64,000 nucleotides of DNA, from contig JAWMAR010001141.1 of the NCBI GenBank assembly GCA_036785375.1, positions 62,001-126,000 of the forward strand, written 5' to 3'. This document shows positions 18,501-59,900 of this stretch, piece after piece (the first letter of the stretch is position 1; every line of letters begins with the position of its first letter). The stretch is from Leucoraja ocellata (taxonomy: Eukaryota). The notes beneath the pieces were generated by a model, which was not told where the DNA came from, searched no databases, and saw nothing but the letters and a program-made list of their open reading frames with translations. A program made the translations under genes and the position numbers.

Positions 18501-21500
18501 GTTAATTGACTTCTGTAAATTGTTCCTAATGTGTAGAACAGAACTGGTGTATGGGGTGATCGCTGCTCAGAGCGGACTCGGTGGGCCAAAGGGCCCATTT
18601 CCACGCTGTATCTTTAAACTGAGCTGAACTGAACTTAACTAATTTGTTCTCAGGTGAGGCTGAGTTGACTCTTCGAGTTACTGACCTGTTTCCATCTGAT
18701 GAACCAGAAGCCTCATTGGAACTTGCTGCCTTGGTGGTTGGTGTACCTTGAGGCATGGTGGTCAGAGTGGTTGTGGTGGAAGCCTTTGTGATTATTGTTG
18801 TAGAGGTGGTGCTGACCATGTCTGGGCTGCTTGTTGGAGATCCTTGTGGAGATAAAGTGAATGAAGTTTTTGAACATTAAATGTGTGAAATCACGTTCTG
18901 TGCCACTTTAGTGATGTGTGGGAGATGCCTCAGTTGGCAGCGCTCTTGCTCTGTGTGGGGAGATTCCTGGGTTCAAATCCCAATCCAGACATTTGGGCAA
19001 AGATCCTTCTGAGGCCACCATAGATGGACCAAGCCCCTTGATCTAGACCGGAGGCTCACCCATTAAGATGCCACCAGATTGTCGCAAGCATTCAGAGACT
19101 TCTTTCATGCCCTCCATAGTCCCACAGGCTGTGTTATCTGCCTGCTGCTAGAGTTAGGCACATGTCTTCTACATTGGAGAAGAACTTGGGAGCGGGAGGA
19201 TCCATGGACTATTTTCATTACGCGGACTGAATTCAAAATAATGCAATTTGGTTGGAGGTATCTACCTGAAACATTAACTCTCGTTCTCTCTCCACAGAAG
19301 CTGCCCGACCCGTTGAGTATCTCAACTTGTACAGTTTGTGTGACTCAGTGTAAAGTCTATATCACTCATCTCTTGAGGATTCTTAGTTCATTAGTTCATA
19401 AGTGATAGGGGCAGATTGAGGCCACTTGGCCCATTGAGTCTATTCCGCCTTTCAATCACGGCTGATCTATCTCTCCCTCTCAACCCCATTCTCCTGCCTT
19501 CTCCCCATATTGCTTGACACCCGTACGAATGGAGAACCTGTCAATCTCCACCTGAAAATACCCAATGACTTGGCCCTCATTGGAAACATGGTAAAAGATT
19601 TTCCCTGTACCTCAGTACAGACGACAACAATAAACTGAGCTCATGAATCACCAAAGTTTGTGAGACACAAGGAATTGCAGGTGCTGGAATTTTAAGCAAA
19701 ACACAAAGTGCTGGAGAAACTCTGCAGGTCAGGCAGCATCCGTTGTAGAAATGAACTGACACTCTTTAGTGTTGGGTCCCTTCTTCAGATGTTGTGGGTG
19801 TGACAGTGACGGGCAGGGGGAGAGGGTGAGGGGGCACCAGAGGTTCTGGCTGTTCCCCTGCTCCAGTGAGGGGCGGCAGAGGTTCTAGACCCGGAGCGAT
19901 CGTCTTTGGGGAAATGAGCCGCCAGCAGCAGAACCGCCGGTCCCCATTGATGAGCCCCCCCCCCCCCCCCCCACACACACTGCTCCTGGGACAGTGGGCT
20001 CTTGGTGTGGCCCCATGAGCCGGGACCCCAGTAAATGTGCTCCCCCCTCCTTCACCCCGACCCCCGGGGATGTGGCACCGAGTCACCGTCAGCACCGAGG
20101 CCGGGAATTCCCAGGCTGGAATGTTCACATCTGGGAGAGTGAGGAGAGATCGTCAACGTACCTTCAGAAACCGTCAATGAGATGGAGGTCCTTTCATTGC
20201 TTGAAAATATTCCCTTTACAATCACACACCAGTAGCGTCCTTCATCACTCTTCTCCAGGTTGTCGATGGTTACTGAAACTATCAGTTGTGTTTTGTTATC
20301 ACTCATCGATGTTCTCCTATATTGTGGTGAGTCATCAGTAGAAACCACGGTATCAGATATTATGTAATAGTAACCTTTCTTCCATAGCTTCTTGTTGTCA
20401 GTGTATTCCTGACCATACTGACATTCCACTGTGACCGACTGCCCCAACTCTCCCCTCACCTCCTTGGGTCCAGTTATTCCCCTTAACCCTGTGGACACAT
20501 TAATGATGAAAGATCACTCACACTGCAGCAACACAAGCTGAGGTTTAACAATAAAAAACATGTCATTTGTGCTGTTCAGACAGGTTCATGGTTTCGCATA
20601 GATCATGTGTAGCAAGGAACTGCAGGTGCTGGTTTACACCAAAGATAGACACAAAGTGCTGGAGTAACTCGGCGGATCAGGCAGAATCTCTGGAGAAAAT
20701 GGATAGGTGTCCTTTTTGGGTCGGGACCATTCTTGATCTCCCGGTTGCCAACCCTGTCCATGTCCCTTCCCATTCCCACACTGACCTTTCTGTCCTGGGC
20801 CTCCTCCATTGCCAGAGTGAGGCCACATGCAAATTGGAGGAACCGCACCTCATATTGGGCTCAGGTAGTTTACAACCCAACGGTTTGAACGTTGGTTCTC
20901 TAATTTTAAGTATCTTCTACTAACCTGCCCCCTCCCCCATTGACTCCTATCTCCACCCGGGTTTCCCACCACCTGCCCCAGTGAGGGGCGGCAGAGGTTC
21001 TGGTCCCGGAGCGATCGTCTTCGTGGAAATGAGCCGTCAGCAACAGAACCGCCGGTAGATGGGATCTTCCGTGGGGCTGGTGTCTGACAGCCCCCCCCCC
21101 CCCCCCCCCCCCCCCATACTGCTCCAGCGACAGTGAGCTCTTGGTGTGGCCCCACGGGCCGGGACCCCAGTAAGTGAGTTATCCACCCAACCCCCTTACC
21201 GCGACCCCCCCGGGGATGTGGCACCGAGTCACCGTCAGGACCGAGGCCGGGAATTCACAGGCTGGAATTTTCACATCTGGGAGAGTGAGGAGAGATCGTC
21301 AACGTACCTTCAGAAACCGTCAATGAGATGGAGGCCGATTCAATGAATGAATGTTTTCCCTTTACTATCACACACCAGTAGAGTCCTTCATCACTCTTCT
21401 CCAGGTTGTCGATGGTGACTGAAACTATCGGTTGTTCTTTGTCATCAGTCATCGATGTTCTCCCTTGTTGTGGGTGATCAGTAGAAACCACGGTAGAAGA

Positions 21501-24298
21501 TGGAAGGAAATAATCACCTTTACTCCATAGCTTGTCGTTGTCTTTGTATTTCCGATCATACTGACATTCCACAGTGACCGACTGCCCCAACTGTCCCCTC
21601 ACCTCCACGGCTTCAGTTATTCCCCTTGATCCTGTTGGCACATTAATGATGAAAGATCACTCACACTGCAGCAACACAAGCTGAGGTTTAACAATAAAAA
21701 ACATGTCATTTGTGCTGTTCAGACAGGTTCATGGTTTCGCATAGATCATGTGTAGCAAGGAACTGCAGGTGCTGGTTTACACCAAAGATAGACACAAAGT
21801 GCTGGAGTAACTCAGCGGGACGGGCAGCATCTCTGGAGAAACCGACGGGTGATGTTTCCTCGCCCATTCCTTCTCTCCAGAGATGCTGCCCGTCCCGCTG
21901 AGTTACTCCAGCATTTTGTGTCTCTCTTCTTCTGCATAGATCCTGTTGCACTTTAATGCTTTTCCCGCTGGTGTTAATTCCCATTTCACCGGGGATTGTT
22001 CCCCAAGTTCCAGTGAAAGCAGAACTGAGTTCCTTCTTGAACACTTTGTCTACTCCACTGCGATATCTATCTTCCAGCATCTGCAGTTCCTTCTTGAACA
22101 CTGCTTCTGAATCTACCTGGCGCCCAGATCCTCCTTCCCTGTGGGCGTGGCTTGACCGGAGTGGTGGTCATGTGACAGGAAGCCAACCTGTCACTCACTC
22201 TGACCCACCCTGTGTTCAATCTCACTACAACCCACTTCCCCATTGAACTAGTAGAAACAAGGAACTGCAGATGCTGGTTAATGTACAAAAGGACACAAAG
22301 TGCCGGAGTAACACAACGGGACAGGAACTATCTCTGGAGAAAGAGGAACTCTCTGGGTGAAAAGATATTTCCTCATCTGAGTCCTCAATGGCCTACCCGT
22401 TATTGAGGTCACAACCTTAAACTGGACAGGAACTATCTCTGGAGAAAGTGGATAGATGATGATTCATAGAAACATATAAACATAGAAAATAGGCGCAGGA
22501 GGAGATGATTCGGCCCTTCGAGCCGGCACTGCCCAGTTCTGCTTGCTCCCGTTATCCCATGATTCCATTAGCCCTAAGAGCTAAATCTAACTCTCTCTTG
22601 AATACATCCAGTGAATTGGCCTCCACTGCCCTCTGTGGCAGAGAATTCTACAGATTCACAACTCTGGGTGAAAAGGTTTCTACCCCATCTTAACTTAATT
22701 GTGTGTGTTAGTTGTCTGTGCGTTATGTGTGTGTGTGTGTGTGTGGGAGGGAGGGAGGGAAGTAGAGAAAGAAGGGATGGAGCGAATGGGACCCTCTGGA
22801 TACATGGATAGGACAGATTTGAAAGGACTTGGACCAAACATGGACAGGTGGGACTAGTGTTGCTGAGACATGTTGGCCGGTGTGGGCAAGAAGGGCCGAA
22901 GGGCCTGTTTCCACACTGTATCACTCTATGACTCTAACACATGTGAAACTCTGCAGATTCAGGAGCTGGGGTGGAGACACATCATCGCATCAGTCCAGGT
23001 CGGCTCACAAGCCACAAGACAAATGCCTTGAAGGAGAACTCAGAGGCTTTGGAAAGCACAGTGTGTAGAACAGCTCGAGCAGCAGAGTCTGTTGTAAGGC
23101 AGCTGGTTTTTCTCAGAAGGGAGAGATTACCACAACTTCTCCAAATGCTAAATTGGACAGTCACTCTGGTGCTTCCTCATTTGAGATGACGCCTGTTCCC
23201 AATGGCTGGCTTTCACAGGTTTTTTCTTTGAATGTGCTAAGGTTTAGGTTCAACATTTCCCATTGCAGTGCGTGGAGGGAGTGCCGTGTGTCTTTGATAG
23301 ACACTAAAATGCTGGAGTAACGCAGCGGGTCAGGGGGCATCTCTGGAGAGAAGGAATGGGTGACGTTTCGGGTCGAGACCTTTCTTCAGACCCACAGTCA
23401 GGGAGGGAGGAAGTCAAGAGATATGCAAGGGGTAAAGCATTTAGCTGATCTGCTGTCAAGTCACTGAGCACACAGCATCACAACAGTCATTAGTGCAGGG
23501 AAGAACAAGTCTGCAAGCATTTTATCTTTAGCAGCTCGTAGCCCAGTTGTCTGCTCTGTGGCTCAAAATAATTCAAGGTGCTGGCAAATAATTCTGAAGA
23601 ACAGATCACAAGTTCATTAGTACTAGGAGCAGAATTAGGCCATTTGGCCCATCAAGTCTACTCTCCCCCATTCAATTATGGCTGATCTATCTTTCCCTCT
23701 CAACTAAATCCTCCTGCCTTTTCCCCAGGTCTCCTGACACCAGTACTGATCAAGAATCTATCCCATCTCGGCCTTAGAAATACCTATTGATGGCCTCCGC
23801 AGTCTGTGGCAATGAATTTCCACAGTTTCTGTCTCACAAAATTCCTCCTCATCTCCTTCCTAAAGCAACGCCCTTTAATTCTGAAGCTGCGACCTCTGGT
23901 CCTAGAGTCTCCCACTAGTGTAAACATCCTCACCCCATCCACTCTATCCAGGCCTTTCACTATTCAGTAAGTTTCAATGAGGTCCACAAGGCAAGGCAAG
24001 CTGTAGATAGTTATCTCCCGACTTGGGCTGCAACACAACACGACAACAACCACTGATGGAAGTCTCTACAGGAACTAACGAGTGTTGAGCAATTCATCAT
24101 CAGCTCCCCACACAGTACAGAGAGGTCTGTGGTTACAAATAATTCAAGGCGTTGGTAAATAATTCCTCAGAACAGAGCATTTTGTAAAACAACGATTTAC
24201 CTGGTGTGAGACCAACAGCGACAAGAACCAACAGAGCGACCTGTTCCCCTGGATCTGGGCCATCTCTGGTGGGTGAATTCTCCCTGTCCCACCGCCAT
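15441..24298 (-). CDS. Gene 2: inhibitory CD300/pIgR-like (MDIR-type) receptor, about 407 aa if the leader is intact. Exons 24201-24298 (leader, +1 frameshift), 21308-21631 (Va), 20162-20488 (Vb), 18686-18842 (mucin stalk), 17983-18092 (TM), 16276-16328, 15441-15596 (ITIM tail)
   Basis: GT-AG introns with consistent phases from Va to the stop (1,1,2,1,0). TM VVLPIALTIVFLLFIAGIILCV then KMRQRKK. Tail contains VIYTTV, TYMNL and VVYATI. The leader is 98 nt against 97 nt in the gene 3 paralog. Confidence 0.8.
15705..15740 (-). ncRNA. Minimal hammerhead ribozyme motif in a Penelope-derived repeat (also 1297-1332 and 56649-56685 on +)
   Basis: CUGAAGA-A-GGGU(CUCG)ACCC-GAAAC-GUC core with a palindromic minimal stem III. 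Confidence 0.55.
16618..17575 (-). mobile_element. CR1 LINE endonuclease/linker fragment in a gene 2 intron
   Basis: EDFLECIRDGFLYQYVEEPT...LDWVLCNE; PEDWEKFR. Confidence 0.8.
17983..18092 (-). CDS. Gene 2 transmembrane exon (uncharged)
   Basis: VTFSWKVVLPIALTIVFLLFIAGIILCVKMRQRKKT; acceptor ttttgcag, donor gtaagt, phase 2-1. Confidence 0.88.
18686..18842 (-). CDS. Gene 2 Ser/Thr-rich mucin-like stalk exon
   Basis: GSPTSSPDMVSTTSTTIITKASTTTTLTTMPQGTPTTKAASSNEASGSSDGNR; 157 nt, acceptor ctttatctccacaag, donor gtcagt. Confidence 0.85.
20162..20488 (-). CDS. Gene 2 V-set Ig exon Vb
   Basis: GQSVTVECQY...W...SDEGRYWC...ISLTVSE; 327 nt, phase 1-1, ccacag/gtacgt. Confidence 0.92.
21308..21631 (-). 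CDS. Gene 2 V-set Ig exon Va
   Basis: GQSVTVECQYDRKY...W...SDEGLYWC...ISLTVSE; 324 nt, phase 1-1. Confidence 0.92.
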
Positions 24299-27200
24299 GT
24301 CTCGGCTACGTTGGATCGGTTTGGTCCCTGCAGTGCGTTTGAGTTGTCCTCTTCCTCATTCACAACTGAAGTCAAACAGTCAATTTCCGTTTACACAGGA
24401 AACGACTTTGCAGTGGTTCAAGACTAACTTGGTGACTCACTTGTCACCTCCCCCAGCCTCCTCACCACGGACAATGCCCCTATCAGGAGTGAGCTACAAC
24501 ACTCTCCAGTTGCCTGGATTGGAGCATCTCCTCGAAGCTCTGCTTCATCCTGGTGACGTTTGCCCACTTGACTGGCGCTCTGTCCACCACCGCAAACATT
24601 CCCTTGCCCACCCCCTCAATCCCCTCCCCCAAATGCGGGCACACTGTGTCTGAACTTGTATGGGATTAGGAGGCAGAGATGAGCCATGTTTGAATGGCAG
24701 AGTTGACTGGATGGGCCGAATGGCCAAATTCTACTCCTGGAATGTGTGAACTTGTGATCTGTTTACCCACCACAAAATGCGCGTCACTAATTTGTCCAGC
24801 CTTCCTCAGCTTCTCATCTGTTGAAACGTTACCCAGGAGAAATAAGACACCAACGGAACGGAGATGAGGAAACACTTTATCACCCAGTGAGTTGTGAGTC
24901 TGTGGAATTCTCTTCCTCAGAGAGCGGTGGAGGCCGGTTCTCTGGACACTTTCAAGAGTGAGCTAGATAGGGCTCTCTTAAAGATAGCGGAGTCAGGGGA
25001 TAAGGGGAGAAGGCAGGAACGGGGATTATGGATGATCAGCCATGATCACATTGAATGGTGATGTCGGCTCGAAGGGCCGAATGGCCTACTCCTGCACCTA
25101 TTGTCTGTTGTCTATCGTCAAATGCGAACTGATAAGTCAACTCACGTCACCAGATAAACTCCTTGAAAGTATTCAAATACCTGAGCATCGGAGACTGGGT
25201 AAAGCTGAGTTTGAGGATGTGATTCATAAAATCATAGAGTGATACAGCAGGGAAACAGCTTGCCCAATGCTAATCAAGATGTCCCATGTACGCTGGTCCC
25301 TCTTTAGTTTAGTTTAGTTTAGAGATACAGTGGGGAAACAAGCCATCTGGCCCACTGTGTCTGCACCGTCCAGTGATCCCTGCACAGCAACACAAATGTT
25401 TACATTTACACCAACCCAATTAACCTACAAACCTGTACGTCTTTGGAGTGTGGGAGGAAACTGAAGTTCTCGGGAAAACCCACGCAGGTCACTAGGAGAA
25501 AGTACAGACTATGTACAGACAAGCACCTGTAGCCAGGATTGAACCCGGGTATCTGGCGCTGTTATACAATGTAAGTCAGCAACTCTACTGCTGTGCCACC
25601 GTAAAAACCAGGCCTGCATTTGACCCCTGTCCCTACAAACCTTTCCTATCCACGTACCTTGTCCTAATGCTTTTCAATGTTGTTACTAGTACCAGTCTCC
25701 ACTAGCTCCTCTGGACATGTTCCTTCCATGTACCCATCAGCTTCTGTGAGATAATATTGTTGAGGTAGGATTAGGGTTGTGTGAGGGGAGAAGATAAAGG
25801 AGATTGCATACACTAGAATCTGGAACAATAGGCAGAACACCTGAAAAACTCAACGGGTCAAGCAGCATCTGTGGAGACAAAAAGTGTATGTTTGTATTCC
25901 GGCCGAGACACTACCTCGGGACTGAAGGTAAAAACTGGATCTTTACCGATATAAGAGGAGATGGGTCAAACGGGGGCAAGTGGGACTAGTGGATTAGGAC
26001 GGCACGGTGGTGCAGTGGTAAAGCTGCTGACTTACAGTGCTTACAGTCGGGTTTGATCCCGACTACGGGTGCTGTCTGTATGGAGTTTGTACGTTCTCCA
26101 TGTGACCGCCTGGGTTTTCTCCGAGATCTTCAGTTTCCTTCCACACTCCAAAAACGTATAGGTTTGTAGGTTAGTTGGCTTGGAATAAGTGTAAATAGTC
26201 CCTAGTGCGTGTAGGATAGTGTTAATGTGTGGGGATTGCTGTTTGGTGCGGACTCGGTGGGCCAAAGGGCCTGTTTCCACGCTGTACCTCTATACTAAAC
26301 TAGTGCAGGTGGGCAGTTTGGTCAGCATGGTCAAGTTGGGAAGACGGGCCTGTTTCTGTGCTATATGACTCTATGAGTTTAACGCAGGTGACAGTGCCCC
26401 GCCCTGCTCTGCCCCACTCCCTTTACCCTGGCAATGTGACATGTGGGTGGATTTGGACTTGACCATAGTTCTCCACACGTCACAGACCTGATAACCCACC
26501 CTGCATAGTCATACCAACCCTAACCCGAAGAACCAATGACTTGGTTTCAAAATATTTACACTGGTGTTCAAATCTTCTTATCAACTTCACAACTTCCTAT
26601 TTCTCAAAAACAGACATGTAATGCTGGAGTAAATGGGCCAGGCAGCATCTCCAGAGAACATGGATAGGTGATGTTTTGGGTTGGGACCCTTCTTCAGGCT
26701 GATTGTGGTAGGGGGGAGAGAGCTGGGAGAGAGGTGGGGGAAGGATGATGCCTGGCAAGTGATAGGTGGATACAGGTGAGGGAGGGAGGGTTATTGGCTG
26801 ATGGGTGGATGAAGGTCAGAGATGGAAAGAAGATAAAAGGCTGTGAGATATGGAGAGAAGAGGCATGAAATGTGAAGCTGGAAGAAAGGATATATATATG
26901 TGGAAAGGGACGGAGGTTAGTGGAAAGGATTGTTGTGGGTTAGTTACTTAAAACTAGAAAATTCAATGTTCCCACCATTGGGTTGCAATCTACCCGAGCA
27001 GACTATCAGATATTACTGCATCTGTACTTCCTTGTGGCTTCCTGTTTCTCAACCTGTACTTCCTTGTGGCTTCCTGTTTCTCAACCTATTTTGACGTGAG
27101 TTGCTCACATTGTGTTGTAACACTGCTACACTGGAGATGGCGAGGCTCGTTCTGGGTGATATTTGTGGGGTTGGGTTAGCTGTAGGTGGAACTGCAACCG

Positions 27201-27844
27201 CCCCCAGAGACCCCGGTTCGATTCTGATCTCCGGCGCTATCAGTAAGGAGTTTGCACGTTCTCCCTGTGACAGCGTGGGTCTCCTCTGGGTGCTCCGGCT
27301 TCCTCCCACATCCCAAAGACGTGTGGCTCTGTAGGTTAATTGGCCCTCTTGTCGAATTGCACTCAATGTGTAGGGAGTGCATGCAAAAGTGGTGTGTGGA
27401 CGTGGGACTAGTGTGAACGGGTGATCGATGGTCAGCATGGACTCGGTGGGCCGAAGGGTCTGTTTCCATGCTGTATATCTAACCAGCATGTGATTCGATG
27501 CCAAATTCAACCTGACCATGGTGCTGTGAAGAATCTCAAGACTTTTACACACCTTTAAGGCACAGTTGATATGTAAGTTGCAGATGCATTATTGCAAAGA
27601 ATTGCTCAATAAACCTATAGTCAGAGGGTGATGAATCTGTGGAACTCAATAGACAATAGATAATAGGTGCAGGAGTAGGCCATCCGGCCCCTCGAGCCAA
27701 CACCACCATTCAATGTGATCATGGCTGATCATCCCCAATCAGTACCCCGTTCCTGCCCTTTCCCCAGATCCCCTGACTCTGCTATCTTCAAGAGGCCTAT
27801 CAAGCTCTCTCTTGAAAGTATCCAGAGAACATCTGTGGATATTT

Positions 27845-32831: not shown

Positions 32832-32934
32832 TCAAGTGGTCAAGGTAGATTGGACATAGGTGTGGTGTGGTGATGCTGTAGGGTCAAGGTGATGAGATTT
32901 GTACATCTCCAACTGGTGAACGCCCTCTCTGGCC
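32832..32934 (-). CDS. Candidate alternative cytoplasmic exon of gene 3 (paralog 52165-52267 for gene 4)
   Basis: Strong acceptor gtttagcttttcag, phase 2 compatible with AAAAG|gtgaaa at the end of the TM exon; reads RAREGVHQLEMYKSHHLDPTASPHHTYVQSTLTT*. Confidence 0.4.
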
Positions 32935-34227
32935 CTGAAAAGCTAAACGATGATTATTGGGCGTCATTTCCGTCAGAATAACAATATTGATATAACGATT
33001 ACCCTTCATTTTTATCTTATTCTTCTAACGCGTGTCCACAGTTCATTACGTAATCATTTAACCGTTTTTACATCCCCATTGTTCAATGGTTCAATGGTAC
33101 TTTATTGTCTCATGCACATGCGTACAGTGACATTTCTTTTGTATAGAATTCAGTAAAAATCTTACTTGATATAAGCACAGCTGAAGCTAAGAACAAGAGT
33201 ATTAATAGCAGATTATATGATGCAGTACACAAGAGTTGCCACATTACTGGCAGTATCTTATATTCTTAAACATCAAACTGGGCTTAAAGGCCATTTTATT
33301 TGGGTTTAAAGGCCCGTTGTCATGGAGACGGCACTGGGTGGGAGTTGCAGGGGTCGGCCTGGCCTGGCGATGTTGTCGGTGCCTCCACCACCGCTCCGTG
33401 CCGCTGCAGGCCGTGTCCGATCCGCGCGCTCGTCCCCGACTCTGTGGGGCCTCCAGCGGCACCCGATCCACTGGCTGCTGCAGGGCCTCCAGCAGCCCAC
33501 TCGCACTCCGCCCACACCTCGACCCACCAACGCACCCTTTTCCCCTGCCTCCCACGGCCGTCTCCATGCGAGGTGAGGCCTCACCCAGCCAGCTCACCGG
33601 CGCTGTTCCTCTCCTTCCTCCACCACTGCCGACCCCATCTCCAAGGTCTTGGCTTTTTTTTCCTTGAATAACAATTAAAACACAGTTTATAATCTCCACC
33701 ATCAAATTTTACCCGAGGAAATGACCCAGGGCGGCACAGTGGCGCAGCGGTAGAGTTGCTGCCTTACAGCGCCAGAGACCCGGGTTTGATCATGACTACG
33801 GGTGCTGTCTGTACGGAGTTTGTATGTTCTGCCTGTGACAGCGTGGGTTTTATCTGGGTGCTCCGGTTTCTTACCACAATCCAAAGACGTGTAGTTTTGT
33901 AGGTTAATTGGCCTCTGTATAATTGTAAATTGTCCCTCGTGTGTAGGATAGTGCGAGTGTACGGGGTGATCATTGGTCGGCGCGGACTTGATTGGCTGTA
34001 TACCCTTTAATAATATCTGACAATGTGCACTTTAACCACGTGTGATTTTTTCAATTACAAATCTCAAATTGTGGAATACAGAGGCAAATAAATAAATGAA
34101 GGGTCTTTGTCCCAAACATTATGGAGGGCGCTGTATGTCCACACTTTATCTCTACAAATCGAAAGTAAATTCCCATCATTTCCAGTTGAATTTAATGTGA
34201 ACATCAGAGTGAAGAGATTGCAAACTT

Positions 34228-34342
34228 TCACCTTTTCAAAGTTGTCACACAGCTGATGGAAACCGGGAAGAGAAGCAGAATTCCAAAGAGTACCCAGCGT
34301 AACACACCCCAAACACGGCAAACGATGTTCAGCATGGTGTCC
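34228..34342 (-). CDS. Gene 3 transmembrane exon with charged Arg (activating type)
   Basis: Acceptor ttccttggatttccag, phase 2 matching the stalk donor. The correct frame (VWGVLRWVLFGILLLFPVSI) is not in the ORF track. Confidence 0.82.
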
Positions 34343-35391: not shown

Positions 35392-35422
<31 letters not shown>

Positions 35423-38400
35423 ACCAAAGTGGTGAGGATATCTGGGTGATATGTTTGAGACCCTTGTGAAGATAAAGTGAATGAAGTCTTTGAACATTAA
35501 ATGTTTATAATCACGTTCTGTGTCACTTTAGTGACGTGTGGGAGATGCTTCAGTTCGGAACGATCTTGCTCTGTGTGGGGAGATTCTTGATTCGAATCCC
35601 AAACCTGAGATTTGAGCAAGGATCCTTCCTAAACCACCATAGATGGACCAAGCCCCTTGATCTAGACATGAGGCTCGCCCATTGAGATGTCAGCTCAGCG
35701 GTAGAGTTGCTGCCTCACAGCACAGTAGACGCGGGGTCGATCCTGATACCGGTGCTGTCAGTGCAGAGTCTGTACGTTCTCCATGTGATCGCAAGAGTTT
35801 ACTCTGGGTTCTCCAGTTTCCTCCCACATTCCAAAGACGTGCGGGTTTGTAGTAAGTTGCCCCTAGTGTGTAGAACAGAACTGGTGTATGGGGTGATCGC
35901 TGCTCAGAGCGGACTCGGTGGGCCAAAGGGCCCATTTCCATGCTGTATCTTTAAACTGAGCTGAATTGAACTGAACTAATTGGTTCTCAGGTGAGGCTGA
36001 GTTGGCTCTTCGAGTTACTAACCTGTTTGTAGGTGTTGAACCAGGAGACTCTGTGGAACTTGCTGCCTTGGTGGTTGGTGCATCTTGAGGCATGGTGGTC
36101 AGAATGGTTGTGGTGGAAGCCTTTGTGCTTATTGTTGCAGAGGTGGTGCTGACCATGTCTGGGTGGCTTGTTGGAGATCCTTGTGGAGATAAAGGGAATG
36201 ACGTTTTTGAACATTAAATGTCTGAAAGTACGTTCTGTGCCACTTTAGTGATGTGTGGGAGATGCCTCAGTCGGGAGCGCTCTTGCTCCGTGTGGGGAGA
36301 TTCCTGGGTTCAAATCCCAATCCAGAGATTTGAGCAAAGATCCTTCTGAGGCCACCATAGATGGACCAAGCCTCTTGATCTAGACCGGAGACTCACCCAT
36401 TAAGATGCCACCAGATGGTCACAAGCATTCAGAGACTTCTTTCATGCCCTTCAGAGTCCCACAGGCTGTGTTATCTGCCTGCTGCTAGAGTTAGGCACAT
36501 GTCTTCTACACTGGAGAAGAACTTGGGAGCGGGAGGATCCATGGACTATTTTCATTACGCGGACTGAATTGGAAATAATGCAATTTGGTTGGAGGTATCA
36601 CCTGAAACATTAACTCTCGTTCTCTCTCCACAGAAGCTGCCCGACCCGTTGAGTATCTCATCTTGTAGAGTTTGTGTGACTCAGTGTAAAGTCTATATCA
36701 CTCATCTCTTGAGGATTCTTAGTTCATTAGTTCATAAATGATAGGGGCAGATTGAGGCCATTTGGCCCATTGAGTCTATTCCACCTTTCAATCACGGCTG
36801 ATCTATCTCTCCCTCTCAACCCCATTCTCCTGCCTTCTCCCCATATCGCTTGACACCCGTACTAATTGAGAACCTGTCAATCTCCACCTGAAAATACCCA
36901 ATGACTTGGCCCTCATTGGAAACATGGTAAAAGCTTTTCCCTGTACCTCAGTACAGACGACAACAATAAACTGAGCTCATGAATCACCAAAGTTTGTGAG
37001 ACACAAGGAATTGCAGGTGCTGGAATTTTAAGCAAAACACAAAGTGCTGGAGTAACTCAGCAGGTCAGGCAGCATCCGTTGTAGAAATGAACTGACAATG
37101 TTTAGTGTTGGGTCCCTTCTTCAGATGTTGTGTGTGTGGTGGGTGTGACAGTGACGGGCAGGGGGAGAGGGTGAGGGGGCACCAGAGGTTCTGGCTGTTC
37201 CCCTGCTCCAGTGAGGGGCGGCAGAGGTTCTGGACCCGGAGCGATCGTCTTTGGGGAAATGAGCCGCCAGCAGTAGAACCGCCGGTCCCCATTGATGCCC
37301 CCCCCCCCCCACACACACACACACACACTGCTCCTGGGACAGTGGGCTCTTGGTGTGGCCCCATGGGCCGGGACCCCAGTAAATGTGCTCCCCCCTCCTT
37401 CACCCCGAACCCCCGGGGATGTGGCACCGAGTCACCGTCAGGACCGAGGCCGGGAATTCCCAGGCTGGAATGTTCACATCTGGGAGAGTGAGGAGAGATC
37501 GTCAACGTACCTTCAGAAACCGTCAATAAGATGGAGGTATTTTCATTGCTTGAAAATATTCCCTTTACAATCACACACCAGTAGCGTCCTTCATCACTCT
37601 TCTCCAGGTTGCCGATGGTGACTGAAACTATCCGATGTGTTTTGTTATCAGTCATCGATGTTCTCCCTCGTCGTGGGTGATCAGTAGAAACCACGGTAGA
37701 AGAAAACAGGTAATAATCACCTTTACTCCATAGCTTGTCGTTGTCTCTGTATTCCTGACCATACGGACATTCCACAGTGACCGACTGCCCCAACTCTCCC
37801 CTCACCTCCTTGGGTCCAGTTATTCCCCTTGACCCTGTGGGCACATTAATGATGAAAGATCACTCACACTGCAGTAACACAGGGGGCGGCAGAAGTTCTG
37901 GTCCCGGAGCGATCGTCTTCGAGGAAATGAGCCGTCAGCAACAGAACCGCCGGTAGATGGGACCTTCCGTGGGGCAGGTGTCTGACAGCCCCCCCCCCCC
38001 CCCCCCCCCCATATTGCTCCTGGGACAGTGAGCTCTTGGTGTGGCCCCACGGGCCGGGACCCCAGTAAGTGAGTTATCCACCCAACCCCCTTACCGCGAC
38101 CCCCCGGGTATGTGGCACCGAGTCACCGTCAGGACCGAGGCCGGGAATTCCCAGGCTGGAATTTTCACATCTGGGAGAGTGAGGAGAGATCGGCAACTTA
38201 CCTTCAGAAACCGTCAATGAGATGGAGGCCGAATCGTTTCCCTTTACAATCACACACCAGTAGAGTCCTTCATCACTCTTCTCCAGGTTGTCGATGGTGA
38301 CTAAAACTATCCGTTGTGTTTTGTCATCAGTCATCGATGTTCTCCCTCGTCGTTGGTCATCAGTAGAAACCACAATATAAGATTTCTGGTAATAATCACC

Positions 38401-41400: not shown

Positions 41401-42723
41401 AGGTCAGCTCACAAGCCACAAGACAAATGCCTTGAAGGAGAACTCAGAGGCTGGGGAAAGCAAAGTGTGCAGATCAGCTCGAGCAGCAGAGTCTGTTGTA
41501 AGGCAGCTGGTTTTTCTTAGAAGGGAGAGATTACCACAACTTCTCCAAATGCTAAATTGGACAGTCACTCTGGTGCTTCCTCATTTGAGATGACGCCCGT
41601 TCCTAATGGCTGGCTTTCACAGGTTTTTTCTTTGAATGTGCTAAGGTTTATGTTCAACATTTCCCATTGCAGTGCGTGGAGGGAGTGCCGTGTGTCTTTG
41701 ATAGACACTAAATGCTGGAGTAACGCAGCGGGTCAGGGGGCATCTCTGGATAGAAGGAATGGGTGACGTTTCGGGTCGAGACCTTTCTTCAGACCAACAG
41801 TCAGAGAGGGAGGAAGTCAAGAGAATATGCAAGGGGTAAAGCATTTAGCTGATCTGCTGTCAAGTCACTGAGCACACAGCATCACAACAGTCATTAGTGC
41901 AGGGAAGAACAAGTCTGCAAGCATTTTATCTTTAGCAGTTCGTAGCCCAGTTGTCTGCTCTGTGGCTCAAAATAATTCAAGGTGCTGGCAAATAATTCTG
42001 AAGAACAGATCATAAGTTCATTAGTACTAGGAGCAGAATTAGGCCATTTGGCCCATCAAGTCTACTCTCCCCCATTCAATTATGGCTGATCTATCTTTCC
42101 CTCTCAACTAAATCCTCCTGCCTTTTCCCCAGGTCTCCTGACACCAGTACTGATCAAGAATCTATCCATCTCAGCCTTAGAAATACCTATTGATGGCCTC
42201 CGCAGTCTGTGGCAATGAATTCCACAGTTTCTGTCTCACAAAATTCCTCCTCATCTCCTTCCTAAAGCAACGCCCTTTAATTCTGAAGCTGCGACCTCTG
42301 GTCCTAGAGTCTCCCACTAGTGTAAACATCTTCACCCCATCCACTCTATCCAGGCCTTTCACTATTCAGTAAGTTTCAATGAGGTCCACAAGGCAAGGCA
42401 AGCTGTAGATAGTTATCTCCCTTCTCCACAGGGAGCTAGCTGTGTGCGACTTGGCTGCACACAACACGACAACAACCGCTGATGGAAGTCTCTACAGGAA
42501 CTAACGAGTGTTGAGCAATTCATCATCAGCTCCCCACACAGTACAGAGAGGTCTGTGGTTACAAATAATTCAAGGCGTTGGTAAATAATTCTAAAGAACA
42601 GAGCATTTTGTAAAACAACGATTTACCTGGTGTGAGACCAACAGCGACAAGAACCAACAGAGCGACTGTTCCCCTGGATCTGGGCCGTCTCTGGTGGGTG
42701 AATTCTCCCTGTCCCACCGCCAT
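34228..42723 (-). CDS. Gene 3: activating-type CD300/pIgR-like receptor, about 334 aa. Exons 42627-42723 (leader), 38202-38513 (Va), 37511-37834 (Vb), 36023-36179 (stalk), 34228-34342 (Arg-TM + TGA); possible extra tail exon 32832-32934
   Basis: Leader MAVGQGEFTHQRRPRSRGTVALLVLVAVGLTPG|gtaaat is phase 1. V and stalk exons are open with matching phases. TM exon reads DTMLNIVCRVWGVLRWVLFGILLLFPVSISCVTTLKR* (intramembrane Arg, no ITIM). Confidence 0.8.
34971..35462 (-). pseudogene. Degenerate second stalk exon interrupted by an HE1 SINE (paralog 54309-54793)
   Basis: Same acceptor context (cactttatcttcacaag) and gtcagt donor as the functional stalk, Thr-rich coding remnant, SINE in the middle and shifted end phase. 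Confidence 0.7.
37511..37834 (-). CDS. Gene 3 V-set Ig exon Vb
   Basis: ORF 37065..37844; 324 nt, phase 1-1, canonical Ig Cys/Trp/YWC. Confidence 0.92.
38202..38513 (-). CDS. Gene 3 V-set Ig exon Va (12-nt in-frame deletion in FG loop)
   Basis: ORF 38074..38523; 312 nt, donor gtaagt. Confidence 0.92.
40078..41190 (-). mobile_element. Rex1/Babar-clade LINE 3' fragment (paralog about 62465-63010; missing from unit 1)
   Basis: LRRL.KAGLP...FYRGTIESILT.GITSWFGSC...HPSH.IFSILP.GKRYRS...SFFPQAIRL; (actgaat)n tail. Confidence 0.85.
40413..40866 (-). mobile_element. Young HER1/CR1 insertion nested in the Rex element
   Basis: TSD gtttt; empty site at about 62685; (tttctatg)n tail. Confidence 0.9.
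42627..42723 (-). CDS. Gene 3 signal-peptide exon
   Basis: acATGG start, basic n-region then VALLVLVAVGLTPG, phase-1 donor CAG|gtaaat; GAGGAAGAGG Ets-like box about 55 nt upstream. Confidence 0.65.
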
Positions 42724-49284: not shown

Positions 49285-49540
49285 AATCTGAGTCAGAGAG
49301 TTGTTGGTTCAACTCCCACTCCTGAAGCCCGAGGACTGAGGGAGTGCAGTACTGAGGGAGCTCGCCACTGCTGGAGGTGAAGTCACTTTGCCGAGGCATT
49401 TAGCTGATCTGCTGTCTGCTCTGTCTCAAGTCACTGAGAAAGGTCACCTGGAGATAGTTCACACCAGAATAGGGGAGAGACTCCTTGTTCTGGGGGCAAG
49501 AGTTCTCCCTACAAACCAAGATCAACAAGGCAAGCTGTAG
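49285..49540 (+). mobile_element. Ancient Deu-domain-like SINE (AmnSINE1/SacSINE1-like) remnant
   Basis: ctgagtcaga..gttgttggttcaactcccactcc...gtgcagtactgagggag..gccactgctggaggtg resembles the DeuSINE consensus as recalled; not verified by search. Confidence 0.5.
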
Positions 49541-49542
49541 GT

Positions 49543-50050
49543 CAGTGGTTCCCAACGTGGGGCGTACGCCCCACAGGGGGGCAATTTGATTTTTAAGGGG
49601 GGCAATTGAGAGCGACTGAGGAGGTCTGGGTCCAAATTTTCGATTTTTATTTTTTTGGATTTTCCATCAGGTAAACATATGTAGTTTATGTTTCAGATGT
49701 TATTTTGAGTAAATAATTTTTTTGGGGTAAAAAAGGTCTTTATTGTGTAGTTTCATTATTATTATTTTAATACCACCTAATGTTTTTTTCTTTTTTTTTT
49801 ACAATTTTTTAGTAATTTCTTGCTCAGAACTTTAACTGTCTTTCTTTTAATTCATTTGTCTTTTTCATGGATGCCATGTTCTTTTGAAGCTTGTTTAAAC
49901 CAAGGTATTGGCGTTTTAAGCTTCTTCAGCTGAAACGGAGTTCACTTTTTAAATTATAAGAATTATATATCACCACATGGGGGGGGGGGGGCATCAGGAT
50001 TTTAGAGGTGATTAGGTGGGGCATGGCCAAAAAAAGGTTGGGAACCACTG
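49543..50050. mobile_element. Non-autonomous hAT (Charlie-like) DNA transposon
   Basis: 14-bp TIRs CAGTGGTTCCCAAC/GTTGGGAACCACTG, near-perfect 8-bp TSD ctgtaggt/c-gtaggt; empty site at about 30270. Confidence 0.9.
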
Positions 50051-53000: not shown

Positions 53001-53565
53001 CTTGAATAACAATTAAAACACAGTTTATAATCTCCACCATCAAATTTTACCCGGAGGAAATGACCCAGGGTGGCACAGTGGCGCAGCGGTAGAGTTGCTG
53101 CCTTACAGCGCCAGAGACCCGGTTTGATCATGACTACGGGTGCTGTCTGTACAGAGTTTGTATGTTCTGCCTGTGACAGCGTGGGTTTTATCCGGGTGCT
53201 CCGGTTTCTTACCACAATCCAAAGACGTGTAGTTTTGTAGGTTAATTGGCCTCTGTATAATTGTAAATTGTCCCTCGTGTGTAGGATAGTGCGCGTGTAC
53301 GGGGTGATCATTGGTCGGCGCGGACTTGATTGGCTGTATACCCTTTAATAAAATCTGACAATGTGCACTTTAACCACATGTGATTTTTTCAATTACAAAT
53401 CTCAAATTGTGGAATACAGAGGCAAATAAATAAATGAAGGGTCTTTGTCCCAAACATTATGGAGGGTGCTGTATGTCCACACTTTATCTCTACAAATCGA
53501 AAGTAAATTCCCATCATTTCCAGTTGAATTTAATGTGAACATCAGAGTGAAGAGATTGCAAACTT

Positions 53566-53680
53566 TCACCTTTTCAAAGTTGTCACACAGCTGATGGAAA
53601 CCGGGAAGAGAAGCAGAATTCCAAAGAGTACCCAGCGTAACACACCCCAAACACGGCAAACGATGTTCAGCATGGTGTCC
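53566..53680 (-). CDS. Gene 4 Arg-containing transmembrane exon
   Basis: Same translation as 34228-34342. Confidence 0.82.
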
Positions 53681-56600
53681 CTGGAAATCCAAGGAAATAT
53701 TATTACTTCCACACAGAGTTACCACAGATCAACGCTGGCAATTTTCTTTCATCATGTTGCACACGGAATCATTCAGTGTGATTCAAGGTTGTGGCTTAGA
53801 CATTGGTGAGATGTTGATATCGCAACATGCACCCATTCCTTGGAGGTGTTCCACGACTACATACATTAACAACTTAGATGTTCATTTTGATGGTCAGACA
53901 TAGAGCACGAAAACATGTCCTTTGACCCAATTTCCCCCACGCCGACCAAGATGGCCTTATCTACACTAGTCCCATCTGCCGGCCTTAGATGTTAATGTTG
54001 GAAGTATGATTTACGAGTTTACAGATTACACCAACATTGTCTCATTTTGGATAGTACGATAATCATAGACCACAGAGGGATAAGAAGCAACTGGTATGTT
54101 GGGCAGAGCAATGCCAGCAGGTATTGAACCATGATAAGTGTGACGTTATTTGTTTTTGGCATCATGTAAGGGTAGACATTCATAATGGTAGGGCCACTGG
54201 GTGTACTAAGGACAGAGGGACTTTAGTCAGGGCCAAGGAGTATTTATCAATGGACTGGAATGTGATCAGCCACGCTTTCTCAAAGTACTGGGACTTTGAG
54301 TCACTGACCTGTGTCGAGGCGATGAACCAGGAGTCCCTGGTGGTCGATGCTTCCGGAGGCAGAGTGGGTGTGGTGGTTCCTGAGGTGGTGGTGACCATAC
54401 TTTAATCCAGTTTAGTTTAGTTTTGAGATATAGCGCGGAAACAGGCCTGACGGCCCATGGAGTCCACACTGACCAGCGATCCTCGCACACTAACACTAGG
54501 CTACACACACTAGGGGCAATTGACACATACGCCAAGCCAATCTACTTACATACTTGTATGTCTTTAGAGTGTTGGTGGAAATCAAAGATCTCAGAGAAAA
54601 CCCATGCGGTCATGGGGATAACGTACAAACCCCGTACAGGCAGCACCTGTAGTCGGGATCGAACCTGGGTCTCCAGCGCTACAAGCATTGTAAGGCAGCA
54701 ACTCTACCGCTGCGCCACCATGCAACCCCCCACACACACACACACACACACGCACCAAAGTGGTGAGGATATCTGGGTGATATGTTTGAGACCCTTGTGA
54801 AGATAAAGTGAATGAAGTCTTTGAACATTAAATGTTTATAATCACGTTCTGTGTCACTTTAGTGACGTGTGGGAGATGCTTCAGTTCGGAACGATCTTGC
54901 TCTGTGTGGGGAGATTCTTGATTCGAATCCCAAACCTGAGATTTGAGCAAGGATCCTTCCTAAACCACCATAGATGGACCAAGCCCCTTGATCTAGACAT
55001 GAGGCTCGCCCATTGAGATGTCAGCTCAGCGGTAGAGTTGCTGCCTCACAGCACAGTAGACGCGGGGTCGATCCTGATACCGGTGCTGTCAGTGCAGAGT
55101 CTGTACGTTCTCCATGTGATCGCAAGAGTTTACTCTGGGTTCTCCAGTTTCCTCCCACATTCCAAAGACGTGCGGGTTTGTAGTAAGTTGCCCCTAGTGT
55201 GTAGAACAGAACTGGTGTATGGGGTGATCGCTGCTCAGAGCGGACTCGGTGGGCCAAAGGGCCCATTTCCATGCTGTATCTTTAAACTGAGCTGAATTGA
55301 ACTGAACTAATTGGTTCTCAGGTGAGGCTGAGTTGGCTCTTCGAGTTACTAACCTGTTTGTAGGTGTTGAACCAGGAGACTCTGTGGAACTTGCTGCCTT
55401 GGTGGTTGGTGCATCTTGAGGCATGGTGGTCAGAATGGTTGTGGTGGAAGCCTTTGTGCTTATTGTTGCAGAGGTGGTGCTGACCATGTCTGGGTGGCTT
55501 GTTGGAGATCCTTGTGGAGATAAAGGGAATGACGTTTTTGAACATTAAATGTCTGAAAGTACGTTCTGTGCCACTTTAGTGATGTGTGGGAGATGCCTCA
55601 GTCGGGAGCGCTCTTGCTCCGTGTGGGGAGATTCCTGGGTTCAAATCCCAATCCAGAGATTTGAGCAAAGATCCTTCTGAGGCCACCATAGATGGACCAA
55701 GCCTCTTGATCTAGACCGGAGACTCACCCATTAAGATGCCACCAGATGGTCACAAGCATTCAGAGACTTCTTTCATGCCCTTCAGAGTCCCACAGGCTGT
55801 GTTATCTGCCTGCTGCTAGAGTTAGGCACATCTTTTCTACATTGGAGAAGAACTTGGGAGCGGGAGGATCCATGGACTATTTTCATCACGCGGACTGAAT
55901 TGGAAATAATGCAATTTGGTTGGAGGTATTTACCTGAAACATTAACTCTCATTCTCTCTCCACAGAAGCTGCCCGACCCGTTGAGTATCTCATCTTGTAC
56001 AGTTTGTGTGGCTCAGTGTAAAGTCTATATCACTCATCTCTTGAGGATTCTTAGTTCATTAGTTCATAAGTGATAGGGGCAGATTGAGGCCATTTGGCCC
56101 ATTGAGTCTATTCCACCTTTCAATCATGGCTGATCTATCTCTCCCTCTCAACCCCATTCTCCTGCCTTCTCCCCATATCGCTTGACACCCGTACTAATGG
56201 AGAACCTGTCAATCTCCACCTGAAAATACCCAATGACTTGGCCCTCATTGGAAACATGGTAAAAGCTTTTCCCTGTACCTCAGTACAGACCACAACAATA
56301 AACTGAGCTCATCAATCACCAAAGTTTGTGAGACACAAGGAATTGCAGGTGCTGGAATCTTGAGCAAAACACAAAGTGCTGGAGTAACTCAGCAGGTCAG
56401 GCAGCATCCGTGGAAGGAATGAACTGACAATGTTTAAGGTTGGGTCCCTTCTTCACCGGAGGAACAGCACCTCATATTCCGTTTGGGGAGTCTGCACCCC
56501 GGGGGCATGAACATCGACTTCTCCCAATTCTGTTAGTCCTTGCTGTCTCCTCCCCTTCCTCAGCTCCCCTGCTGTCCCCTCCCACCCTCCAGCCTTCCGG

Positions 56601-56942
56601 CTACTCCTCCTTTTCCCTTTCTTGTCCCCACCCACCCCCACCCCTGATCAGTCTGAAGAAGGGTTTCGGCCCGAAACGTTGCCTATTTCCTTCGCTCCAT
56701 AGATGCTGCTGCACCCGCTGAGTTTCTCCAGCTTTTCTGTGTAACCTCCCTTCTTCAGATGTTGTGTGCGTGGTGGGTGTGACAGTGATGGGCAGGGGGA
56801 GAGGGTGAGGGGGCACCAGAGGTTCTGGCTGTTCCCCTGCTCCAGTGAGGGGCGGCAGGGGTTCTGGACCCGGAGCGATCGTCTTTGGGGAAATGAGCCG
56901 CCAGCAGCAGAACCGCCGGTCCCCATTGATGAGCCCCCCCCC

Positions 56943-56973
<31 letters not shown>

Positions 56974-59900
56974 ACACTGCTCCTGGGACAGTGGGCTCTT
57001 GGTGTGGGCCCATGGGCCGGGACCCCAGTAAATGTGCTCCCCCCTCCTTCACCCCGACCCCCGGGGATGTGGCACCGAGTCACCGTCAGGACCGAGGCCG
57101 GGAATTCCCAGGCTGGAATGTTCACATCTGGGAGAGTGAGGAGAGATCGTCAACGTACCTTCAGAAACCGTCAATGAGATGGAGGTCCTTTTATTGATTG
57201 GAAATATTCCCTTTACAATCAGCACACACCAGTAGTATCCTTCATCACTCTTCTCCAGGTTGTCGATGGTGACTGAAACTATCCGTTGTTTTTTGTCATC
57301 AGTCATCGATGTTCTCCTATATTGTGGGTCATCAGTAGAAACCACGGTAGAAGAATTTGTGTAATAATAACCTTTACTCCATAGCTTGTCGTTGTCTTTG
57401 TATTTCCGATCGTACCGACATTCCACAGTGACCGACTGCCCCACCTCTCCCCTCACCTCCTCGGGTCCAGTTATTCCCCTTGACCCTGTGGGCACATTAA
57501 TGATGAAAGATCACTCACACTGCAGCAACACAAGCTGTGGTTTAACAATAAAAAACATGTCATTTGTGCTGTTCAGACAGGTTCATGGTTTCGCATAGAT
57601 CATGTGTAACAAGGAACTGCAGGTGCTGGTTTACACCAAAGATAGACACAAAGAGCCGGAGTAACTCAGTGGGACAGACAGCATCTCGGGAGAAACCGAC
57701 GGGTGATGTTTCCTCACCCATTTCCTTCTCTCCATAGATGCTGCCCTTCCTGCTGAGTTACTCCAGCATTTTGTGTCTCTCTCCTTTTGCATAGATCCTG
57801 GTGCACTTTAATGCTTTTCCCGCTGGTGTTAATTCCCATTTCACTGGGATTATTGTTGTAGAGGTGGTGGTGACCATGTCTGGGCGGCTTGTTTGAGACC
57901 CTTGTGGAGATAAAGTGAATGACGTTTTTGAACATTAAAAGTCTGAAAGCACGTTCTGTGCCACTTTAGTGATGTGTCGGAGATGCCTCAGTCGGGAGCG
58001 CTCTTGCTCCGTGTTGGGAGATTCCTGGGTTCAAATCCCAATCCAGAGATTTGAGCAAGGATCCTTCTGAGGCCCCCATAGATGGACCAAGCCCCTTGAT
58101 CTAGTCATCTCATGAGGATTCTTCGTTCATACGTTATAGAAACATAGAAAATAGGTGCAAGAGGAGGCCATTCAGCCCTTCGAGCCTGCACCGCCATTCA
58201 CTGTGATCAGGGCTGAACGTCCCCAATCAATAACCCGTGCCTGCCTTCTCCCCATATCCCTTGATTCCACTAGCCCCTGGAGCTCTATCTAACTCTCTCT
58301 TAAATCCATCCAGTGATTTGGCCTCCACTGCCCTCTGTGGCACGGAATTCCACAAATTCACAACTCTCTGGGTGAAAAAGTTTTTTCTCACCGCAGTCTG
58401 AAATGGCCTCCCCTTTATTCTAAGGCTGTGGCCCCTGGTTCTGGACTTGCCCAACATTGGGAACATTTTTCCTTCATCAAGCTTGTCCAGTCCTTTTATA
58501 ATTTTATAAGTTTCTATAAGAAACCCACTCATCCTTCTAAACTCCAGTTTTGAGCCTAGTCTTTTCAATCTTTCCTCATATGACAGTCCCGCCATCCCAG
58601 GGAGCAATCTCGTGAACCTACGCTGCACTGCCTCAATCACAAGGATGTTCTTCCTCAAATTAGACCAAAACTGTACACAATACTCCAGATGTGGTCTTAC
58701 CAGAGCCTGATACAACTGCGGAAGAACCCCTCTACTACTGTACTGAAATCGTCTTGTTATGAAGTTCATGTGATAGGGGCAGAATGCGGCCATTTGGCTT
58801 ATTTATGTCTACTCCGCCATTCAATCATGGCTGATCTATCTCTCCCTCTCAACCCCATTATCTTCCCTTCTCCCCATATCGCTTGACACTCATACTAATC
58901 GAGAACCTGTGAATCTTAAAAATACCCAATGATTTGGCCTTCATTGGAAACATGGTAAAAGCTTTTCCCTGTACCTCAGTACAGACGACAACAATAAACT
59001 GAACTCATGAATCACCAAAGTTTGTGAGACACAAGGAATTGCAGGTGCTGGAATCTTGAGCAAAACACAAAGTGCTGGAGTAACTCAGCAGGTCAGGCAG
59101 CATCTGTGGAAGGAATGAACTGACAATGTTTAGTGTTGGGACCTTTCTACAGATGTTGTGTGTGTGGTGGGTGTGACAGTGACGGGCAGGGGGAGAGGGC
59201 ACCAGAGGTTCTGGCTGTTCCCCTGCCCCAGTGAGGGGCGGCAGGGGTTCTGGACCCGGAGCGATCGTCTTTGGGGAAATGAGCCGCCAGCAGCAGAACC
59301 GCCGGTCCCCATTGATGAGCCCCCCCCCCCCCCCCCCCCCCACACACACACTGCTCCTGGAACAGTGGGCTCTTGGTGTGGCCCCATGGGCCGGGACCCC
59401 AGTAAATGTGCTCCCCCCTCCTTCACACCGACCCACGGGGATGTGGCACCGAGTCACCGTCAGGACCGAGGCCGGGAATTCCCAGGCTGGAATGTTCACA
59501 TCTGGGAGAGTGAGGAGAGATCGTCAACGTACCTTCAGAAACCGTCAATAAGATGGAGGTCCTTTTATTGATTGGAAATATTCCCTTTACAATCAGCACA
59601 CACCAGTAGTATCCTTCATCACTCTTCTTCAGGTTGTCGATGGTGACTGAAACTATCCGTTGTGTTTTGTTATCACTCATCGATGTTCTCCTATATTGTG
59701 GGTCATCAGTAGAAACCACGGTAGAAGAATTTGTGTAATAATAACCTTTACTCCATCGCTTCTTGTTGTCACTGTATTCCTGACCATACTGACATTCCAA
59801 AGTGACCGACTGCCCCAACTCTCCCCTCACCTCCTTAGGTCCAGTTATTCCCCTTGACCCTGTGGACACATTAATGATGAAAGATCACTCACACTGCAGC

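Follow-up and report, generated by a model that had tools for sequence, protein, structure and literature searches.

Mosaic V domains in tandem CD300/pIgR-like receptor genes of the skate Leucoraja ocellata: evidence pointing to germline short-tract conversion

A 64,000-nucleotide stretch of the Leucoraja ocellata genome (GenBank assembly GCA_036785375.1, contig JAWMAR010001141.1, positions 62,001 to 126,000; the window, numbered here from its first nucleotide) contains four related genes, all on the minus strand and head to tail. We analysed the seven V exons of three of them: A2 and B2 of gene 2, A3 and B3 of gene 3, and A4, B4 and C4 of gene 4 (Table 1). Most likely, these exons encode mosaic V domains of tandem, predicted inhibitory and activating CD300/pIgR-like receptors, shaped by short-tract conversion in the germline with occasional unequal crossover or deletion, and with likely diversifying selection on the loops. 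The exons and their flanking introns form near-identical repeats, with pairwise identities of 85-94% among the seven extracted exons, and different parts of the exons support different trees. A preliminary description of the window had proposed that short-tract conversion or unequal crossover recombines the loops of these V exons; recombination between paralogs is supported, most clearly by the comparison of C4 and B4 with the reference protein P0002, and several of the sharings then cited appear to be ancestral instead.

Two segments of one V domain match the neighbouring exon

The three-domain layout of gene 4 recurs in P0002, whose record names it a Leucoraja erinacea pIgR-like protein. Domain 3 of P0002 differs from C4 at 12 residues, and all 12, including those due to a 3-nt insertion, match B4. 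Between P0002 domain 3 and B4 there are 27 differing residues, and at these a third state is never seen in C4, which follows domain 3 for 10 residues, B4 for seven, domain 3 for four, B4 for five and domain 3 for the last one (runs P 1.2e-4). At the DNA level C4 is identical to B4 over 57382-57303 and 57254-57177, with B4's 3-nt insertion included. C4 therefore bears the marks by which gene conversion is recognized, namely short tracts identical to an identifiable donor (B4) with recipient sequence on both sides. In a structure model (predicted local distance difference test score, pLDDT, 94), the first patch extends from the CC' loop to the C'-D region and the second covers the FG loop, the loops being named by standard V-domain nomenclature applied to the predicted strands. 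The ligand cleft of mouse CD300lf is made up of the CC' and FG loops (PMC6166816). The simplest reading is that the patches were converted from B4 into C4, a direction suggested by B4 being unchanged between window and reference and by the patches holding no differences from B4. A4 and its reference counterpart differ by a single residue (60809 region, L versus R, F strand), where the variant is the residue of B2 and B3, a possible micro-conversion or point mutation.

If the mosaics had arisen from unequal, copy-number-changing crossovers and birth-and-death only, with no short-tract conversion, the introns of C4 (Va-type upstream, Vb-type downstream) would be readily understood, and rearrangement is indeed indicated both by a fusion junction in gene 4 (57854-57848) and by the three V domains of the reference inhibitory protein P0153 compared to two in gene 2. 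However, the boundaries of the two C4 patches lie no more than 80 and 78 nt apart, P0002 already has the three-domain layout, and four crossovers inside about 200 nt would be required, which leaves an origin by crossovers only unlikely.

Recombination tests across the seven exons

The pairwise homoplasy index (PHI) test detected recombination in the exons at three window sizes (P 0.0014, 0.009 and 0.017) and in the exons with their flanks (P 0.0002), with false positives in 3-5% of 150 single-tree simulations; applied to the amino acids of 11 domains (the seven of the window and four distinct reference ones), it gave P 0.0005-0.007. In an exhaustive parsimony analysis of all 945 trees, the best single tree required 84 steps at 45 informative sites, compared to a minimum of 56. 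One breakpoint saved nine steps and two saved 12, gains that were reached by 0/1000 site permutations (P 0.001) and by 0/400 single-tree simulations in each of three rate models. Two of 210 triplets were significant after Bonferroni correction; one of them, B3 as a B2/A2/B2 mosaic, is the case raised in the preliminary description and had a triplet P of 1.5e-4 (0.031 when corrected for 210 triplets). Columns 560-645 of the flank alignment, in a poly-G region, were left out of the breakpoint, tree and divergence analyses and kept in PHI and in a GENECONV-like scan. Overall, the pattern of sharing is mostly more than chance. The combination of no significant breakpoints with congruent trees over exon thirds, proposed earlier as grounds for dropping the idea, was looked for and not found, seven short exons giving limited power for such a comparison.

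Parallel point mutations at a few positively selected codons might imitate mosaics with no recombination whatsoever. Positive selection is evident, with three to five residues at some codons, and breakpoint signal at the codon level is in the P 0.02-0.05 range. Nevertheless, all 12 C4 residue differences, 3-nt insertion included, equal B4 with nucleotide identity over both patches, simulations with hot sites yielded no such breakpoint gains (0/400 per model), and the identical 1,079-bp intronic tract described below is not under selection of this kind. Parallel mutation is thus highly improbable as a general explanation and largely refuted for C4, although single shared sites such as the A4 L/R residue may have arisen in this way.

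Shared motifs and their ancestry

A six-frame search of the whole window, combined with exon extraction, located all the motifs quoted in the preliminary description at the exons named there, the positions given being the low ends of minus-strand exons. Two of its pairings held as proposed, since RYWCVIVKG of the FG loop is shared by B3 and B2 only (2/7 exons) and YDRKYKDNDK is confined to A2 and C4 (2/7). The sharing between B3 and A2 was not quite as exclusive as claimed: SSTVVSTDHP occurs in these two exons alone (2/7), but DNDKLWSKG is found in three of the seven, C4 being the third, as is GRTSMTD, with A3 the third. YQKSY is confined, as reported, to A3 and A4 (2/7), but the best overall tree accounts for this pairing, and mosaicism gains no support from it. 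In the outgroup comparison, Amblyraja, Pristis and Narcine domains also had YDRKY, an Amblyraja second domain had DHPRRG, and Amblyraja activating genes had the GI.SS.ER FG loop. Because outgroups carry these motifs, the FG loop common to B3 and B2, or the YDRKY common to C4 and A2, can be simple retention; it is the combination of motifs, and not any single one, that appears to need exchange.

A long identical tract, assembly quality and larger rearrangements

A second clear sign of exchange, located outside the V exons, is a 1,079-bp tract without a single difference between genes 3 and 4 (35422-36500 versus 54753-55831). The background difference is ~2.3%, and with differences placed uniformly the longest gap in 20,000 trials was 725 bp. 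An intronic run shared by B2 and B3 (seven sites) and followed by sites shared by B3 and C4 was not counted as separate evidence, because its B3-C4 part is this same tract; three sites from non-homologous B4 sequence were ignored.

Several observations weigh against conversion as the explanation. Direction and non-reciprocity in C4 are not provable from two haplotypes, and the reference is a protein-only gene model that may come from a sister species, since the two V domains of gene 1 match those of its counterpart P0174 at 89/102 and 97/104 residues (87-93%). On window data alone, C4 as an A2/B4 mosaic was not significant (adjusted P 0.20-0.25), and no fragment reached global significance in the GENECONV-like scan with no mismatches allowed (lowest P 0.061 in the exons and 0.076 when flanks were included). 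At the codon level the breakpoint signal is weak (P 0.046 for one and 0.019 for two breakpoints). The earlier statement that no single tree fits all segments is not proved by likelihood tests on exon thirds, where 78/945 trees pass the Shimodaira-Hasegawa (SH) test and 1/945 passes the approximately unbiased (AU) test in all three thirds. AU values over 945 trees were unstable, one tree tied for best likelihood receiving 0.0002, so the zero AU overlap obtained after adding an intron segment is not relied on. With strongly clumped placement of differences, the 1,079-bp tract has P 0.003-0.02. Moreover, several of the shared motifs cited above appear to be retained ancestral states and not transfers between the named exons, and residual indel errors in the assembly are suggested by two frameshifts, one in the leader of gene 2 and one in a tail exon of gene 3, together with 19 indel events that separate genes 3 and 4 over 2,103 bp.

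The last of these points bears on an artefact in which sequence leaked from one near-identical paralog to another during consensus calling or short-read polishing. Such leakage could yield a perfect match of 1,079 bp, and for that tract alone it is a lesser but appreciable possibility. As a source of the mosaics in general it is improbable: A4 and B4 agree with the independent reference at 214/215 residues, and C4 agrees outside its patches; a typical short read exceeds either patch in length, and unconverted sites flank the patches although misplaced reads would be expected to alter these as well; B4 itself lies 2.4 kb away, absorbing its own reads; and reference domains of other skates are also patchy. 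The frameshifts, an extra base at 24241 (gene 2 leader) and a missing base at 33655 (gene 3 tail exon), could reflect pseudogenization or consensus errors, and an alternative tail exon of gene 3 (32934-32830) is intact. Relative to its gene 4 copy, the segment 31698-33800 has 19 short indel events in 2,103 bp, compared to two in the adjacent 1,621 bp, and is likely poorly polished.

The divergence of gene 1 from P0174, and its resemblance at several residues to Amblyraja P0175, suggest that the window may represent a deep haplotype or a sister species relative to the reference, which would not remove the C4 pattern. The junction at 57854-57848 in gene 4 is of deletion type and joins a truncated stalk exon to a Va-type intron with short microhomology. 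Since Amblyraja has single-V activating genes with C-like motifs (P0187 and P0189), gene 4 may have arisen by the joining of a two-V front part to a single-V gene; these same genes weaken the idea that C4 is a simple recent Va-by-Vb crossover. A templated 65-nt insertion before B4 (59903-59967) and a deletion before B3 (37881/37882) occupy almost matching places in their introns, with one downstream sequence taking part in both, which suggests a fragile site. A poly-G run (minus strand) ~190 nt downstream of each cluster V exon (21091-21115, 56934-56959 and equivalents) might promote breaks.

Germline or somatic exchange

Cartilaginous fish have AID, and short, exact, neighbour-templated patches in ligand loops resemble AID-type conversion, so that a somatic programme of conversion in leukocytes, like that of chicken immunoglobulin genes and partly recorded in the assembly, would be a conceivable source. 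Somatic diversification, raised as a possibility in the preliminary description, found no support, however. Variation showed no WRC/GYW bias (5/24 hotspot C/G sites vary versus 33/122 others; P 0.62, with low power), there is no pseudo-V donor array, conversion extends to introns and stalk, and an assembly reports the majority genotype; a somatic origin is accordingly extremely improbable. A CpG hotspot test was also negative. Equally hard to credit is a templated loop library, in which the C-C' disulfide was lost and both walls of the cleft are swapped by directed conversion, also somatically in leukocytes, to give a diversified receptor that is neither immunoglobulin nor T-cell receptor; germline copying of both cleft loops together from a neighbouring exon is seen in one instance, C4.

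Selection, loops and exchange between receptor classes

The ratio of replacement to silent differences per site (pN/pS) exceeds 1 in 21/21 exon pairs (range 1.25-3.78), with 84 replacement and 14 silent changes (P 0.017), and some codons carry three to five residues. Exons of the same type differ by 6-12% and their downstream introns by 1-5% (P<0.05 in 8/9 pairs). Diversifying selection on the loops is likely, and conversion here redistributes variants faster than it erases them. The loop shuffling proposed earlier is in part a by-product, because variable residues are commoner in loops (28/48) than in strands (22/60; P 0.03) and patches are visible only where sites vary; the apparent modularity of the loops is no proof of targeting.

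We propose that point mutations, fixed by selection, would give rise to new loop variants, and that misalignment of the repeats in meiotic repair would copy these from one tandem domain, or one gene, to another. The homology for exchange would come from invariant strands and introns, for which reason the visible patches would be loops. By analogy with CD300lf, CC' and FG loops moved together would bring a ligand cleft to another domain or to another signalling tail.

Genes 2, 3 and 4 have the organization of paired receptors, with similar ectodomains linked in gene 2 to a tail with immunoreceptor tyrosine-based inhibitory motifs (ITIMs) and in genes 3 and 4 to a charged transmembrane segment and a short tail. 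On the basis of motifs alone, gene 2, with ITIM-type tyrosine motifs and an uncharged transmembrane segment, is predicted to be inhibitory, and genes 3 and 4, with a transmembrane Arg and short tails, activating. These classes agree with those assigned in the preliminary description, whose further claim of exchange between them is likely and less secure than recombination itself. Two observations point to it. First, the CC' region of the first domain of the Amblyraja inhibitory protein resembles that of A4, where A2 instead carries an NDK..SSTVV block, whose NDK also occurs in an Amblyraja activating gene, in C4 and in B3. Second, all three intact stalk exons of the window start with SPT, whereas the truncated or relic copies and the seven skate reference proteins inspected have SQT. 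The outgroups on which these two arguments depend are probably mosaics too, and exchange between the classes is for this reason put no higher than likely.

Relationship to known receptor systems

The cluster exons encode a V-set immunoglobulin domain whose best sequence matches among solved relatives are pIgR, then CD300lf, and the model's best fold matches are CD300lf and IREM-1 (template modelling scores 0.85-0.90). Among the matches listed, the nearest database proteins are from skates and rays and annotated as polymeric immunoglobulin receptor-like or CMRF35-like, the closest records being Leucoraja P0002 and P0153, Amblyraja P0155, P0187 and P0189, and Rhinoraja P0151 and P0152; a protein search with one V exon at near length returned no match. 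All 8/8 Rhinoraja domains fall in one clade (100/99), whereas the Amblyraja V1 domain groups with Leucoraja-type Va domains. The cluster resembles the CD300 (CMRF35), pIgR and TREM families in its V-set domain, mucin-like stalk and pairing of ITIM with charged-transmembrane forms. However, CD300 proper has a single V domain and the cluster genes have two or three tandem V exons, and the Cx6-9C pair is absent from 7/7 cluster exons, whereas the ligand cleft of CD300lf is described as floored by a C-C' disulfide (PMC6166816). As the disulfide and single-domain features fail, we file the cluster as apparently CD300/pIgR-like and not as CD300. The C-C' cysteine pair, lost in the seven skate exons, is half kept in Narcine and in Amblyraja P0187 and fully kept in Mobula and Hemitrygon relatives. 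Its loss appears to have been stepwise, beside the most variable loop. In Narcine and Rhinoraja, relatives (P0001, P0151 and P0152) contain tandem arrays of four or five V domains, with identical copies in some cases in a single protein, and change in domain number is for this reason general in rays and skates.

As described, the MDIR genes of the clearnose skate, a multigene activating and inhibitory family resembling CD300, TREM and pIgR (PMC3031540), are like this cluster, a likeness of description, and no MDIR-named record was among the matches listed (29 and 35 proteins). We found no study of this cluster in the literature on MDIR, CD300 or pIgR-like genes in skates, subscription papers and supplements being outside the scope of the search. 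Patchy exchange in the ligand-domain exons of opposing receptors is reported for KLRC, Ly49 and PIR under the term "merohomogenization" (PMC3210942), patchy conversion in clustered opposing receptors for Xenopus CEACAM (PMC5112662), and a gain of sequence from KIR3DL2 by gene conversion for KIR2DS4 (PMC2768862). According to these accounts, the cluster has in common with such systems patchy exchange in ligand exons, fast replacement change at the binding face and a short tract that moves loops. Merohomogenization as portrayed there leaves ligand exons more alike than their flanks; the cluster shows the reverse (exons 6-12% and introns 1-5% different). Also unlike the KLRC/Ly49/PIR, CEACAM and KIR cases as reported, its clearest event is between tandem domains of one gene, and all its genes share one strand in head-to-tail order. 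Zebrafish NILT genes (bioRxiv 10.1101/2022.04.21.489081), from a different family, likewise form a fish immunoglobulin-domain cluster with alternative haplotypes and varied domain combinations; the word 'conversion' is absent from the main text of that preprint, and its supplements might discuss exchange.

The surprise is modest, because conversion is already well known from KIR, Ly49, PIR and CEACAM. What is new is the C4/B4/P0002 case and a good cartilaginous-fish example of a known process, extending conversion-driven evolution of paired receptors to cartilaginous fishes. The case is unusually clean: between window and reference, one domain differs by two patches of under 100 nt, apparently taken from the next exon and lying over the two loops that make up the CD300lf ligand cleft. 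If confirmed in reads, this would be a compact system in which to study tract length and rate, and the effect of loop swaps on ligand specificity. The strong difference between window and reference in domain number and loops suggests an arms race with pathogens.

Cluster layout

Table 1. Features of genes 2, 3 and 4 in window coordinates
Feature	Position	Strand	Remarks
V exon A4, first V of gene 4 (predicted activating type)	60733..61056	-	106/107 residues identical to P0002 domain 1
V exon B4, second V of gene 4, putative donor of both C4 patches	59533..59859	-	108/108 residues identical to P0002 domain 2
65-nt insertion upstream of B4, copy of Vb-type downstream intron	59903..59967	-	1 mismatch in 60 to copies 59305-59246 and 56919-56860; 7-8 mismatches to Va-type copies
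Truncated stalk exon fused to Va-type intron, gene 4	57848..57900	-	Junction 57854-57848, 4-7 nt microhomology
V exon C4, third V of gene 4, putative mosaic; upstream intron Va-type, downstream intron Vb-type	57159..57485	-	
C4 patch 1, same sequence as B4; extent at most 80 nt and at least about 57369-57318; spans CC' loop, C' strand and C'-D region	57303..57382	-	
C4 patch 2, identical to B4 including its 3-nt insertion; maximum 78 nt, minimum about 57223-57192; FG loop	57177..57254	-	
1,079-bp tract of gene 4, identical to gene 3; includes stalk exon 55510-55354	54753..55831	-	
Gene 4 transmembrane exon with Arg (VLRWVLF)	53570..53680	-	Short tail exons 53000-52931 or 52267-52165, no ITIM
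Gene 3 leader exon, in frame	42627..42723	-	
V exon A3, 12-nt deletion in FG loop	38202..38513	-	
V exon B3, ends B2-like, middle A2-like; ~450 nt of upstream intron deleted at 37881/37882	37511..37834	-	
1,079-bp tract of gene 3, identical to gene 4; includes stalk exon 36179-36023	35422..36500	-	
Gene 3 transmembrane exon with Arg	34232..34342	-	
Gene 2 leader exon; extra base near 24241 shifts assembled frame	24201..24298	-	
V exon A2 of predicted inhibitory gene 2; Va-type ends, C/Vb-type middle block	21308..21631	-	
V exon B2 of predicted inhibitory gene 2	20162..20488	-	
Gene 2 mucin-like stalk exon; starts SPT as in genes 3 and 4; SQT in skate reference proteins	18686..18842	-	
Gene 2 transmembrane exon, hydrophobic span without charged residue	17983..18092	-	
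Gene 2 cytoplasmic exons 16328-16276 and 15596-15441; tyrosine motifs VIYTTV, NTYMNL, VVYATI	15441..16328	-	

No gene from outside the family was identified in the 64,000-nt window. Gene 1 (7239-2153, minus strand) is a divergent two-V CD300/pIgR-like gene, both of whose V domains keep the extra cysteine pair. Genes 3 and 4 have a second stalk-like exon (35462-34970 and 54793-54310), broken by a short interspersed repeat, and a 290-bp insertion found only in gene 4 (56458-56747), 96% identical to 1106-1395, is a recent repeat fragment.

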